DNA of 64,000 nt from Alphaproteobacteria bacterium (GTDB taxonomy: Bacteria; Pseudomonadota; Alphaproteobacteria; RF32; CAG-239): positions 210,995-274,994 of the forward strand of contig JBKEEF010000012.1 of assembly GCA_047975765.1 (NCBI GenBank). Reading direction: 5' to 3'. The notes under the pieces are model-generated. The model ran no database searches. It saw only the letters and a program-made list of their open reading frames with translations, and was not told the origin of the DNA. The translations under genes and the position numbers were made by a program. This document shows positions 50,320 to 53,495 of this stretch, piece after piece; the stretch's first letter is position 1, and every line of letters begins with the position of its first letter.

Positions 50320-50347
50320 AAAAGCCTCTAAATTTAGAGGCTTTTTT
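50320..50347. terminator. Bidirectional terminator
   Basis: aaaagcctcta/tagaggctttt. Confidence 0.8.
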
Positions 50348-50350
50348 GTT

Positions 50351-51967
50351 TTATGAGTTTGTTTTTCCTTTTATATTGAAAGCCGCAAATGTTCTTGACC
50401 CTAAATCTCCATTGCCTACAATTTTTTCAGCATGATCAATAGAAATAGCTTGTTTCAAACTTTTATCTGATTTGAATTCCCCAATATAATTTTCAGCGCG
50501 CGTGATGATTCCTTTGAATTTATCCACTCTTCCATCATTCATAAATGCTAGTCTTTCTTCAGCAAATTTATCATAAAAACTTTTCAGTTCAGAATTTGTG
50601 CAAGCATTGAGATAATCTGCTTTTTTTTCCCATGACTTAAGACTTTTATTAGAAGTTTTTTGAGTTCTATTTTTCTCAACTTCCTTAATCCCTGCTTCAA
50701 AGAACTTTTTAAATGTTTTAGGCTTATGATTATAAGATGCATCAAAAAGCATTTTGGCAACGGATTCATTTTCAATTTTATGAGATGAAAATTCTTCATA
50801 AAAATATTCAACAACTTTCACACTTTGCGCTTCTGTCAGATGTTTAACATCGCTTGGGAATTTTCCATATTTTTCAGGAAATCTTTTCTTTAAACTCTTC
50901 AAAAGTGGATTGGTTACCCCAAAATTGGTTGCTTGATCAATTACAGCAACTTTTTCGCCTTTTGCTCTTAGAGCTGCTGCTTCTTTTGCTGTTGTGCCAT
51001 AACCGCCTTCTTTGGCAAAAGTTTCTTGAACTATTTTTTCAAATCTTTCTTGTTTATTGACTTCAAGATGTGCCGAAATGTTTTGAAGCTTGATATCAGA
51101 CAGATTCAAAGGAGAAACTTTAAGCATCTCAATTTTTGGTGTCTCAATTTTTGCAATTGTTGGATTTTGAACTTCTGCTTTCTGTTCTTTTTTCTCAGCT
51201 AATTTTGCGCGAACTTCTTGTTTCTTCTTCGCAACTTCAACTTTAGGAGAAACAGCCATTTTTTTGGCTTCCTCAAAAGAAACTACAATTTCTGGCTTCA
51301 GTTTTTTTTCAGTCTTCGCCTGAACAGTTTCAACTCTGTTCTCATTTTGAGAAACAACTTCCGTTTTTGCAGACTTTCCTCCAAATGCAAGGAAACCGAG
51401 AATTGTTAAGCCTGCTGCCACACCTGCTAATTCTTTTTTTCTTTTTTGATAAAAATCTGCCTTAATCTTTTTAACCTCAGCCACTTCTTTTTCAGGACTT
51501 TTTTCTTTACGAATTCCTTTATCAATCAAACTTTGTTCAATAATTTCATAAAGTTCAAGTGCATCTTCAATGATTTGATCTACTTGTTTTTCATAGGGTA
51601 AGTTTCTATTTTTATAAAGTACGGGAATTTGAATTCCAGTCACGTCGACTGTTCTCATTCTTTCGCCATGTGCTTTATATTCATTTTCAATTGATTTTTT
51701 ATAGCCCTCGTCATAATCAAAAATATCTGATACAAAATTATCGAAAGCCACATCAATGGTTTTTGCATTTTTGACATATCTGTATGGAAGAACAATATAT
51801 TCTGCAAATTCACGAGTCTCATCCAAAGAAACTTCTTCATTTGTCATGTCTTTATAGATATAGGAACTGCCTAAAGTTGCTTCGCAAACAACAGCCACTT
51901 CATTCACCCAAGGCTGATTATTTTGCTTATATTCATCAATAAGGTGTTTTTGAATGTCTTCGAGCAT
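50351..51967 (-). CDS. Membrane-anchored protein with C-terminal glycoside hydrolase 108 (lysozyme-like) domain
   Basis: TM at aa ~180-197; FAKEGGY, D..TNFGVT, DVKHLT, LFDASYNH, RLAF, GIITR. Confidence 0.75.
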   Translation of the reverse strand: MLEDIQKHLIDEYKQNNQPWVNEVAVVCEATLGSSYIYKDMTNEEVSLDETREFAEYIVLPYRYVKNAKTIDVAFDNFVSDIFDYDEGYKKSIENEYKAHGERMRTVDVTGIQIPVLYKNRNLPYEKQVDQIIEDALELYEIIEQSLIDKGIRKEKSPEKEVAEVKKIKADFYQKRKKELAGVAAGLTILGFLAFGGKSAKTEVVSQNENRVETVQAKTEKKLKPEIVVSFEEAKKMAVSPKVEVAKKKQEVRAKLAEKKEQKAEVQNPTIAKIETPKIEMLKVSPLNLSDIKLQNISAHLEVNKQERFEKIVQETFAKEGGYGTTAKEAAALRAKGEKVAVIDQATNFGVTNPLLKSLKKRFPEKYGKFPSDVKHLTEAQSVKVVEYFYEEFSSHKIENESVAKMLFDASYNHKPKTFKKFFEAGIKEVEKNRTQKTSNKSLKSWEKKADYLNACTNSELKSFYDKFAEERLAFMNDGRVDKFKGIITRAENYIGEFKSDKSLKQAISIDHAEKIVGNGDLGSRTFAAFNIKGKTNS

Positions 51968-52001
51968 TTCTATTTCCTAAATGAATTTTTCTATAACACA
52001 A

Positions 52002-52030
52002 ATCATACTGTTTTTTTGTTTATTTGTCTA
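52002..52030 (-). promoter_or_regulatory. Candidate promoter of GH108 gene
   Basis: TAGACA-17-TATGAT. Confidence 0.5.
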
Positions 52031-52127
52031 TATTTTAATTATTAAGGTTCTTAGCCAAATATCAGTATTGATATTTTTTTAATATTAATTATCTAGAATA
52101 GAAATAAAGATATCAGGAGACTATGAA

Positions 52128-52439
52128 ATGAAAAAAGCTTTTCTAATTTTATCAATGACAATTCTTTGTGCTTGTAGCACAATTGACAACTTCAAAGGAA
52201 AAAACAAATTTGAGTATCAATGTGGCACACAGGAGGCTCAATTTGTGACTTCTAGAGGTGAAGAGGCTCTTCTCATCTTTAATGAAAACAAATATCTCCT
52301 CAAACAAACCATTTCTGCTTCTGGTGCAAAGTACATTAATGAAGATGAAAATGTGATTTTTTGGAGCAAAGGAAATGAAGCTTCTCTTGAAATAAATAAT
52401 GTTATCTTGCCAAAATGTATTGAAGAAACAATCTCATAA
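52128..52439 (+). CDS. mliC: MliC family lysozyme-inhibitor lipoprotein
   Basis: Lipobox LCAC; YQC...SASGAKY...FWSKGNEA...C signature; SD aggag. Confidence 0.9.
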   Translation: MKKAFLILSMTILCACSTIDNFKGKNKFEYQCGTQEAQFVTSRGEEALLIFNENKYLLKQTISASGAKYINEDENVIFWSKGNEASLEINNVILPKCIEETIS

Positions 52440-52512: not shown

Positions 52513-53025
52513 ATGAATATGAAAAATATAAAATCAATTCTTTTGTTTTTATGCGTTGCTTTTGCTTTTTGCTCTTGCAAGTCAACTCAGAATCCAGAAA
52601 AATCCGTTGACACATTGTCTGCAACAACTGTTTCTTCCTCGGGAGAATATACTGTTGAAGATTTTAAAAAGATGGATAATGTTCTTGACGTTGATTTTCG
52701 TGGAAACGACCTTTTTGCTGTCAACAAATATTCGGAAGGATGGCAGTTGTACAACAAAAAAGGGCAAGTTGTTCTTCCTGCTGGTTACTATTCTAATAAT
52801 TTTTGCGACTTAGTGAAGATTAAAGGAGGTATCTATATCAGGGTTAATACTTTCAACAAAGAAGCAAACACGACAACTTATCTTTACTTCCAAGATGGAA
52901 AAGAAATTAAAGAAGTCGGTGGCAAAGCAATTGACAAGATGAATGAAGATGAAATTGTCTTCTTTGACCGGATATCCGATCGCGAAGAAGATCTTGATTG
53001 CGATACCGAAGATGTATATCTTTAG
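52513..53025 (+). CDS. Lipoprotein with WG-repeat-like segment
   Basis: Lipobox FCSC; GWQLYNKKGQVVLP; second ATG at 52519 possible. Confidence 0.75.
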   Translation: MNMKNIKSILLFLCVAFAFCSCKSTQNPEKSVDTLSATTVSSSGEYTVEDFKKMDNVLDVDFRGNDLFAVNKYSEGWQLYNKKGQVVLPAGYYSNNFCDLVKIKGGIYIRVNTFNKEANTTTYLYFQDGKEIKEVGGKAIDKMNEDEIVFFDRISDREEDLDCDTEDVYL

Positions 53026-53067: not shown

Positions 53068-53105
53068 GTTTTAAAAGGATTATATTTGTGCAAAGGAGAA
53101 AAAAT

Positions 53106-53495
53106 ATGAAACATCAAATTTTGGGCTTTTTAACTTTTTTTCTGTTCAGCTCTTTTGCTTATGCTGATACAATCCAGTGTGATGGTTATGGTGAATGTCT
53201 TGGATATACAACCGAAGGGCAAAGAATTATCATCCACAAAGAAGATGGCTTGATAACAGGATATATTGGTGATGAACGTGTTGATGTCTATCAAGATAGT
53301 GAAGGCAATGTTACCGGAACTGTTGGAGGCAGATCTGTAAATGCTCACATAGATGCCAATGGAAACATCACAGGTTTATCGGGATCAAACACCATTAACA
53401 TTCAAAATGGTGGCGACGGTTTAGCCCATGGGACAATCGGAAATGCCCCAATCAATGCCTATGAAAATGGTGACACAGTTACAACTGCCGAATAG
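53106..53495 (+). CDS. Secreted Gly-rich beta-hairpin repeat protein
   Basis: Signal peptide ending AYA; ~19-aa repeats GxxG...D..G.IT; SD aggag. Confidence 0.75.
   Translation: MKHQILGFLTFFLFSSFAYADTIQCDGYGECLGYTTEGQRIIIHKEDGLITGYIGDERVDVYQDSEGNVTGTVGGRSVNAHIDANGNITGLSGSNTINIQNGGDGLAHGTIGNAPINAYENGDTVTTAE

Follow-up and report, generated by a model that had tools for sequence, protein, structure and literature searches.

A predicted membrane-anchored GH108-type muramidase with an orphan cytoplasmic domain, and its mliC neighbour, in an uncultured alphaproteobacterium

The DNA analyzed here, which is referred to as the window, is a 64,000-nucleotide stretch of an alphaproteobacterial genome (GenBank assembly GCA_047975765.1, contig JBKEEF010000012.1, positions 210,995 to 274,994 of the forward strand). 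It contains the gene for a 538-aa protein with a glycoside hydrolase family 108 (GH108) module, which is transcribed divergently from mliC, the gene for a predicted lipoprotein inhibitor of c-type lysozyme. In our judgement, the 538-aa protein is likely to be a resident autolysin of the inner membrane in which the GH108 module follows an orphan domain in the cytoplasm and a long stalk, and the MliC encoded beside it is likely to be an ordinary inhibitor of host lysozyme that lies there by coincidence. The novelty is an architectural variant of GH108 that forms an undescribed sub-family; as a system, the gene pair is not new. A first-pass annotation of the window, made from the letters alone, had pointed out the two open reading frames (ORFs), their divergent layout and the 160-bp gap between them, all of which were recovered by an ORF scan (Table 1), and had suggested that the two products are a muramidase effector or autolysin and its immunity or regulator partner.

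Membership in the GH108 family is indicated by Pfam, in which Glyco_hydro_108 (PF05838) matches residues 314-414 with an E-value of 1.7e-6 and a score of 28.9 bits (cut-off 21.2). When the C-terminal half of the protein was compared directly with PDB sequences, no match was returned, and the GH108 structures were reached only via the family profile and by fold search. The family profile matched NMB1012 of Neisseria (2IS5/2IKB; E-value of about 1e-15), SagA of Brucella (7DNP; 1.5e-6) and TtsA of Salmonella (6V3Z/6V40; 0.008-0.01). The AlphaFold2 (AF2) model of residues 300-538, which has a mean predicted local distance difference test score (pLDDT) of 77.9 and a predicted template-modelling score of 0.72, was matched by Foldseek to SagA 7DNP (probability 1.00, template-modelling score of 0.61 on the target, 208 aligned columns), followed by NMB1012 2IKB and TtsA 6V40, the remaining matches being noise. 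The two-domain clamp fold, consisting of a catalytic and a helical domain, is present in the model and aligns over about 200 columns along the whole of SagA, 2IKB and 6V40. The first-pass annotation had placed the GH108 domain at about 50490-51043. GH108 sequence is indeed found there; the Pfam match, however, spans only 50726-51028, and the remainder is the helical C-terminal domain that completes a fold of the SagA/TtsA type.

Conservation was assessed in an alignment of 18 family sequences that are 21-52% identical to the window protein. Residues E320, G321, T347, G350, D409, N413, H414, R472, G486 and R490 are invariant in all 18 sequences, while D344 and Q345 are found in at least 90% of them. 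The consensus of the module reads EEGGYAxKxxIDQxTNxG(I/V), followed by D-x3-NH (D409-x3-N413-H414 in the window protein) and then by the helical C-terminal domain. The catalytic set of SagA, Glu17, Asp26 and Thr31, is equivalent to Glu11, Asp20 and Thr26 of T4 lysozyme (PMC8334348), and its counterparts in the window protein are E320 (51008-51010), D344 (50936-50938) and T347 (50927-50929). The EGGY motif previously noted at 51010 is thus correctly placed, as the E320 codon begins at that position. Because Glu320 and Thr347 are invariant and Asp344 is nearly so, the 538-aa enzyme is probably active.

The segment between E320 and D344 varies in length. It comprises 23 residues in the window protein as against about 10 in the majority of relatives, which corresponds to a 14-aa insert in the catalytic loop and agrees with the insert of about 15 aa before D..TNFGVT that had been noticed at first. 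The two close homologues of the window protein share the insert, and P0012, P0018, P0019 and L010 have inserts of their own at the same point. Across the family, this loop (alignment columns of about 496-545, window residues 324-343) is an insertion hot-spot, with 23 residues in the clade of the window and about 35-50 in P0012, P0019 and L010; such inserts may have a regulatory or occluding function specific to their lineages.

The 538-aa protein has a single hydrophobic helix, at residues 180-197, and KRKK directly precedes it. According to the positive-inside rule, the orientation of a trans-membrane helix can be read from the charges that flank it; because KRKK precedes the helix, the N-terminus is predicted to be inside and the C-terminus outside. 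The stalk between the helix and the GH108 module (residues 198-305) is composed of Lys and Glu to 33% and differs in length and sequence among orthologues. Neither a signal peptide nor a MuF-type, phage or secretion delivery domain was found in the protein with Pfam and PHROG scans. The anatomy given in the first-pass annotation, a domain of about 180 aa without a family, a trans-membrane helix and a Lys/Glu-rich stalk, was reproduced by the Pfam, NCBIfam and PHROG scans, hydropathy and composition.

For the N-terminal part of about 180 aa, no Pfam, NCBIfam or PHROG family was detected; TiaS_TCKD was considered and rejected, as its Pfam E-value of 0.021 is insignificant. The AF2 model of this domain (mean pLDDT of 76) is of mixed alpha/beta type and ends in two long helices that lead into the trans-membrane helix. 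Its conserved residues are L9, E12, Y13, P61, Y64, F78, Y97 and PVxY at 115-118, with the consensus xxYLxxEY ... IPxxY ... F ... Y ... PVPY. The family is small: among 5.8 billion clustered proteins, only two close homologues were found, P0002 (52% identity, from an alphaproteobacterial metagenome-assembled genome, MAG) and P0003 (46%), and a profile search of 1.84 billion representatives returned only 98 clusters at E < 1e-3. Nearly all of the 98 clusters align at profile positions of about 300-520, at the C-terminus of proteins of 380-560 aa. The layout shared by the family consists of the N-terminal domain, one trans-membrane helix, a variable linker and the GH108 module with its helical C-terminal domain, and in none of the 98 clusters is the N-terminal domain joined to another C-terminal fold. 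Some members do without this domain. P0016 (292 aa, L005:5713-6591), P0013 and P0017 consist only of a short Lys/Glu-rich N-terminus, a trans-membrane helix and the GH108 module, so the N-terminal domain is dispensable in some lineages.

A metagenome scan with the family alignment added one distant locus only. The named sources of the relatives are MAGs of uncultured Alphaproteobacteria, including one from water-deer caecum and one labeled as 'uncultured Azospirillum sp.', and the MAGs of several relatives derive from caecal or faecal material. The host of the window is probably a gut-dwelling alphaproteobacterium. One family member, L010, lies on a contig labeled 'MAG: Lactobacillus sp.' (JAISFX010000140.1), beside dnaK/dnaJ genes arranged as in the alphaproteobacterial loci; this contig is probably a binning contaminant. 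In one sub-clade, the 3' end of the GH108-like gene is met by a further ORF of about 170-210 aa, either directly or with an ATGA-type overlap of a few bases (L006:3788-4381, L008:7179-7817, L009:7227-7820 and L018:7153-7662); the window has no equivalent. Of these ORFs, only that of L006 was scanned, and it matched no Pfam family; no obvious signal peptide is seen at the N-termini encoded in L006, L008 and L009. These ORFs may encode a co-translated partner of the GH108-like protein.

Genomic neighbourhoods were compared across 15 distinct loci: the window, L001 (L002 and L004 are from the same genome), L003, L005-L010, which were obtained by scanning species-representative genomes, and L016-L021, which were obtained by contig look-ups of family members. 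In 11 of the 15 loci, dnaJ is convergent to the muramidase gene or one gene off, and in six rpsB-tsf lies upstream of it; the other loci are flanked by further housekeeping genes, among them cysS, rpmI-rplT-pheST and a MATE/MurJ-like gene. In the two closest relatives, the identity of the muramidase module follows that of DnaJ: L001 is 81% identical to the window in DnaJ and 64% in the C-terminal module of the muramidase, and L003 is 67% and 56% identical, respectively. All other loci show 54-61% identity in DnaJ and 27-38% in the module. The GC content and the GC content at third codon positions (GC3) of both the muramidase gene and mliC resemble those of neighbouring genes, and horizontal acquisition of mliC was rejected on that basis. 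Because of the housekeeping synteny, the identity that tracks DnaJ and the native GC and GC3, the pattern appears to be that of a vertically inherited, fast-evolving core gene of an uncultured alphaproteobacterial lineage and not that of a mobile effector.

MliC was searched for at all of these loci by tblastn with two MliC sequences and by a six-frame scan for SxSGxxY in flanks of 5-8 kb, and with the Pfam MliC model in the called genes of L001-L003 and L016-L021 and in selected neighbours in L003, L006 and L011-L014. It was found beside the muramidase gene at two of the 15 loci, the window and L001 (=L002/L004), and was absent from the flanks of the other 13 (L003, L005-L010 and L016-L021). 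The window and L001 share the whole block of pntAB, two genes for small exported proteins, mliC, the muramidase gene, dnaJ, the GNAT gene and lepA, and because the whole block is syntenic they represent a single evolutionary event. In L003, the relative next in closeness, dnaJ still flanks the muramidase gene, and the place of mliC on its opposite flank is taken by a gene for a Lys/Glu-rich secreted protein of 105 aa (L003:1979-2296). The mature part of this protein is almost entirely rich in Lys, Glu and Ala, like the stalk of the enzyme itself. The ordinary GH108+PG_binding_3 genes of Ca. Enterousia (L011-L014) have no MliC neighbour either, and the small lipoproteins encoded beside those of L013 and L014 were rejected as MliC-like, since no MliC or inhibitor family was detected in them. 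The first-pass annotation had named a lack of conserved linkage as the result that would speak against a partnership, and across the 15 loci the linkage is not conserved.

The MliC of the window is itself of the usual kind. The Pfam MliC model (PF09864) matches it with an E-value of 3.5e-14 and 53 bits against a cut-off of 22, and NCBIfam PRK11372 scores 46.7 bits against an equivalog cut-off of 168 bits, which marks the protein as divergent. The SASGAKY motif by which the gene had been recognized at first corresponds to residues 63-69 (52314-52334), and a second conserved region reads FWSKGNEA. The lipoprotein signal MKKAFLILSMTILCAC has a lipobox-like LCAC in which Cys16 is likely the lipidated residue, and the orthologue P0005 has the canonical LASC. 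The best sequence matches in the PDB are MliC/YdhA of E. coli (2F09; E-value of 8e-7), MliC of P. aeruginosa (3F6Z) and PliC of Brucella (4MIR). The alignment with 2F09 covers ISASGA(K/R)Y and FWSKG(N/D)EA, both of the c-type-lysozyme-binding regions, and pairs Cys32 and Cys97 with the Cys pair of 2F09. A homologue search with the window MliC returned only the query itself.

The intergenic region shared by the two genes contains a promoter-like sequence for the muramidase gene, TAGACA-N17-TATGAT, at 52002-52030 on the minus strand, which is kept in L001. The coding identity between the window and L001 is only about 50%, yet their intergenic regions share three conserved blocks, of 14 nt (TTTGTCTATATTTT), 8 nt (CATCATAC) and 22 nt (TTATTGATAT[T/A]TTTTTAATATT). 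The 14-nt and 8-nt blocks together make up TAGACA-N17-TATGAT, and the 22-nt block is separate and lies upstream of mliC. The blocks would be explained most simply by two separate back-to-back promoters.

The genes around the pair include lepA, a GNAT gene, a 121-aa ORF, dnaJ, genes for two small exported proteins, pntAB, chromate transporter genes and the gene for pyruvate kinase. As had been noticed at first, no phage, holin or secretion gene is adjacent: none is present among the annotated neighbours within about 8 kb of the muramidase gene. No virB-like or type IV secretion gene was found among the approximately 20 annotated genes around the locus, the part of the window to which that screen was confined. 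The two small exported proteins, encoded between mliC and pntB, are a 170-aa lipoprotein (52513-53025) and a 135-aa secreted protein of Gly-rich repeats (53088-53495), and in L001 the same position holds two genes whose products, of 202 and 130 aa, match no Pfam family. Together with mliC, the two genes constitute a small block of envelope-protein genes, which sets the clade of the window apart from relatives with rpsB-tsf before the muramidase gene.

Table 1. Positions in the window of the muramidase gene, its parts and the adjoining features
Feature	Position	Strand	Evidence
Gene for the 538-aa bitopic GH108-type muramidase (predicted), stop codon included	50351..51967	-	ORF list; Pfam GH108; orthologues 52% and 46% identical
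Cytoplasmic N-terminal domain (predicted), residues 1-178	51434..51967	-	Orphan alpha/beta fold, kept across the family; AF2 model and alignment conservation
Single trans-membrane helix, residues 180-197, LAGVAAGLTILGFLAFGG	51377..51430	-	Hydropathy maximum and flanking charges
Lys/Glu-rich periplasmic stalk (predicted), residues 198-305	51053..51376	-	Composition; gappy, unconserved alignment columns
GH108 catalytic domain, residues 306-414	50726..51052	-	Pfam PF05838; invariant residues in 18 sequences; profile matches to 2IS5/2IKB, 7DNP and 6V3Z
Helical C-terminal domain, residues 415-500, corresponding to the peptidoglycan-binding domain in SagA/TtsA	50468..50725	-	AF2 model aligned to SagA 7DNP, 2IKB and TtsA 6V40
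Low-confidence C-terminal tail, residues 501-538	50354..50467	-	pLDDT < 50 at 503-516 and 518-538; 501-502 higher
mliC, 103-aa lipoprotein inhibitor of c-type lysozyme (predicted)	52128..52439	+	ORF scan; Pfam MliC; NCBIfam PRK11372; PDB matches
Divergent intergenic region, 160 bp, between the head-to-head muramidase gene and mliC	51968..52127	.	Promoter scan; alignment with L001:7867-8000
Hairpin with T-runs on both sides, between the convergent dnaJ and muramidase genes	50320..50345	.	Terminator scan: 11-bp stem, 4 GC pairs

Among characterized proteins with the layout of the window protein, MltG/MpgA of Streptococcus pneumoniae is a housekeeping protein that also consists of a cytoplasmic domain, one trans-membrane helix and an extracytoplasmic domain that cleaves glycan strands. 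Its catalytic fold is YceG and not GH108, and there is no sequence relationship between the two proteins. Among GH108 proteins, SagA is the closest counterpart. It is a GH108-type autolysin of Brucella abortus that is tethered by a trans-membrane helix and supports the VirB type IV secretion system (PMC8334348). Like the window protein, it is an alphaproteobacterial two-domain GH108 muramidase that is tethered to the inner membrane via a linker and one trans-membrane helix and has the Glu/Asp/Thr catalytic set, and it is both the best structural match to the model and the one for which a partner of MliC/PliC fold has been proposed. In contrast to the window protein, which has an N-terminal anchor and the 180-aa cytoplasmic domain, SagA is of about 245 aa with its trans-membrane helix at the C-terminus and has no cytoplasmic domain; its catalytic loop is DxGGxT instead of DQxT with a 14-aa insert; and it is tied to VirB, whereas the genes examined around the window locus include no type IV secretion gene. 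TtsA of Salmonella Typhi (6V3Z/6V40) and NMB1012 of Neisseria (2IKB/2IS5) resemble the window protein in their GH108 domain and helical peptidoglycan-binding fold, the Glu of EGGY and D-x3-NH; they differ in being soluble proteins of about 170-200 aa without an anchor or an N-terminal domain and with 14-16% identity to the model.

The window MliC resembles MliC of E. coli (YdhA, 2F09) and that of P. aeruginosa (3F6Z, with hen lysozyme) in being a lipoprotein of the same size with both conserved regions and the Cys pair, although it is divergent in sequence, as the NCBIfam score of 46.7 against 168 bits indicates. PhiA (7DPY), which has the MliC/PliC fold, is a proposed inhibitor of SagA from cell-based assays (PMC8334348, citing Del Giudice 2019). 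In purified form, PhiA, which is devoid of an SGxxY loop, is tetrameric and showed neither binding to nor inhibition of SagA or hen lysozyme (PMC8334348). The window MliC, by contrast, retains SASGAKY, and PhiA was not among its PDB matches; its sequence suggests that it is of the canonical lysozyme-binding type and not of the PhiA type.

Several observations weigh against a resident, active autolysin with an unrelated MliC beside it. The catalytic loop of the family is I-D-Q-x-T, in which the Asp is two residues nearer to the Thr than in D-x-G-G-x-T and the Gly-Gly is missing, and HMMER places the family Asp one or two columns off the canonical GH108 Asp; activity could be reduced or changed by this spacing together with the 14-aa insert. 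PG_binding_3 was undetected in the helical C-terminal domain with the Pfam scan, and the fold search with the N-terminal domain in the PDB and BFVD returned no relative (all E-values > 0.4, probabilities <= 0.16). On the side of MliC, its absence at the 13 loci applies to flanks of 5-8 kb, the conserved intergenic blocks could include a shared regulatory site, and genetic data in Brucella connect a GH108 enzyme with a protein of MliC fold. The deviations in the loop would also fit a GH108 module that had been co-opted for binding to peptidoglycan or localization with little hydrolysis, as in the muramidase domain of SpmX of Caulobacter, with a cytoplasmic domain that recruits partners. Consistent with such a scaffold, the inserts vary in length across the family, the Tyr of EGGY is not kept (Y/F/L) in the three closest homologues, and the bitopic layout with a conserved cytoplasmic domain suggests a link between two compartments. 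Nevertheless, Glu320, Thr347 and D-x3-NH are invariant and Asp344 is nearly so at 21-52% identity, which is the pattern expected from selection on catalysis. A non-lytic role thus seems improbable to us.

A functional pair of the SagA/PhiA kind, in which periplasmic MliC restrains the tethered GH108 module for regulation or self-protection and both genes are co-regulated from the divergent region, is unlikely as well, although it is the likeliest of the alternatives. Both products are predicted to be periplasmic, only 160 bp separate the divergent genes, and the intergenic blocks are kept in both genomes with the pair. The linkage is nevertheless limited to one syntenic lineage among the 15 loci, the divergent neighbour in L003 is different, and the intergenic blocks are accounted for by two separate promoters. 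The window MliC also keeps the exact loop that fits the cleft of GH22 c-type lysozyme, whereas the fold of GH108 is like that of T4 lysozyme and differs from that of GH22. The SagA/PhiA precedent favours such a pair through the cell-based assays and disfavours it through the purified proteins. Likewise, Ivy and MliC of E. coli partially inhibited the lytic transglycosylases MltA and MltB in vitro, with neither detectable binding nor an effect in vivo, and MliC was only a weak inhibitor (PMC10139938). A cassette of the polymorphic-toxin type, in which MliC would confer immunity to an antibacterial muramidase effector, is very hard to sustain. That an exported protein of inhibitor fold adjoins a muramidase gene fits such a cassette. 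Yet the protein has neither a signal peptide nor a delivery domain of secretion, phage or MuF type; the internal anchor implies that the protein is resident in the membrane; the N-terminal domain is never fused to other toxin folds in the 98 clusters; at 13 of the 15 loci the putative immunity gene was not found; and the housekeeping synteny is conserved and the base composition native. The idea is largely refuted by the neighbourhood data.

Thus, of the two possibilities in the first-pass annotation, the autolysin has held up, given the membrane-anchored GH108 type, the conserved Glu, Asp and Thr and a fold closest to those of SagA and TtsA. The effector has not, in view of the absence of a secretion or phage context, the restriction of the N-terminal domain to a single partner fold and the housekeeping synteny. 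Nor did an MliC immunity or regulator partner find support, as the linkage is confined to one syntenic lineage and the c-type-lysozyme-binding regions are kept; such a partner would not have been unexpected either, since the pairing of SagA with PhiA is already published (PMC8334348). Best in agreement with the linkage in one lineage and the canonical motifs of MliC is the alternative given there, coincidental adjacency with MliC acting against host lysozyme. For the idea of a muramidase with MliC immunity the outcome is mostly negative, as the adjacency is confined to one lineage and SagA/PhiA is a published precedent for the concept.

Based on the preferred reading of a resident autolysin beside an unrelated MliC, we propose that the orphan cytoplasmic domain of about 180 aa, one trans-membrane helix and a stalk of about 105 aa rich in Lys and Glu would present a two-domain muramidase module to the periplasmic peptidoglycan. 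If catalysis proceeds as in SagA and T4 lysozyme, Glu320 would serve as the general acid, while Asp344 and Thr347, on the flexible loop between alpha1 and alpha2, would position the attacking water and the helical C-terminal domain would grip the glycan strand. The enzyme may then cut bonds between N-acetylmuramic acid and N-acetylglucosamine locally for wall growth, cell separation or the insertion of envelope machines, and the tether and the cytoplasmic domain may limit the place or time of cutting. MliC would be an outer-membrane-anchored inhibitor of animal c-type lysozyme that guards the cell against lysozyme of the host. C-type lysozyme is present in animal guts. Its gene may have been brought beside the muramidase gene by one rearrangement in the sub-lineage of the window, and the two genes would be served by separate back-to-back promoters.

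A more speculative scheme, to which we give little chance of being right, is that of an autolysin controlled from the inside out, in which the cytoplasmic domain senses or docks a cytoplasmic partner, for instance of the division or elongation machinery, and licenses the GH108 module by way of the trans-membrane helix and stalk, and in which MliC was recruited in the sub-lineage of the window as a second, periplasmic brake. If true, it would be the first case of direct inhibition of a GH108 enzyme by MliC, which failed in vitro for SagA and PhiA. The GH108 sub-family described here, so far found only in uncultured Alphaproteobacteria, several of them gut-derived, would combine a topology reversed with respect to that of SagA with an orphan domain on the cytoplasmic side and a catalytic loop prone to insertions. 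Should this orphan domain control the enzyme, the sub-family would provide another example of trans-membrane regulation of cell-wall cleavage.

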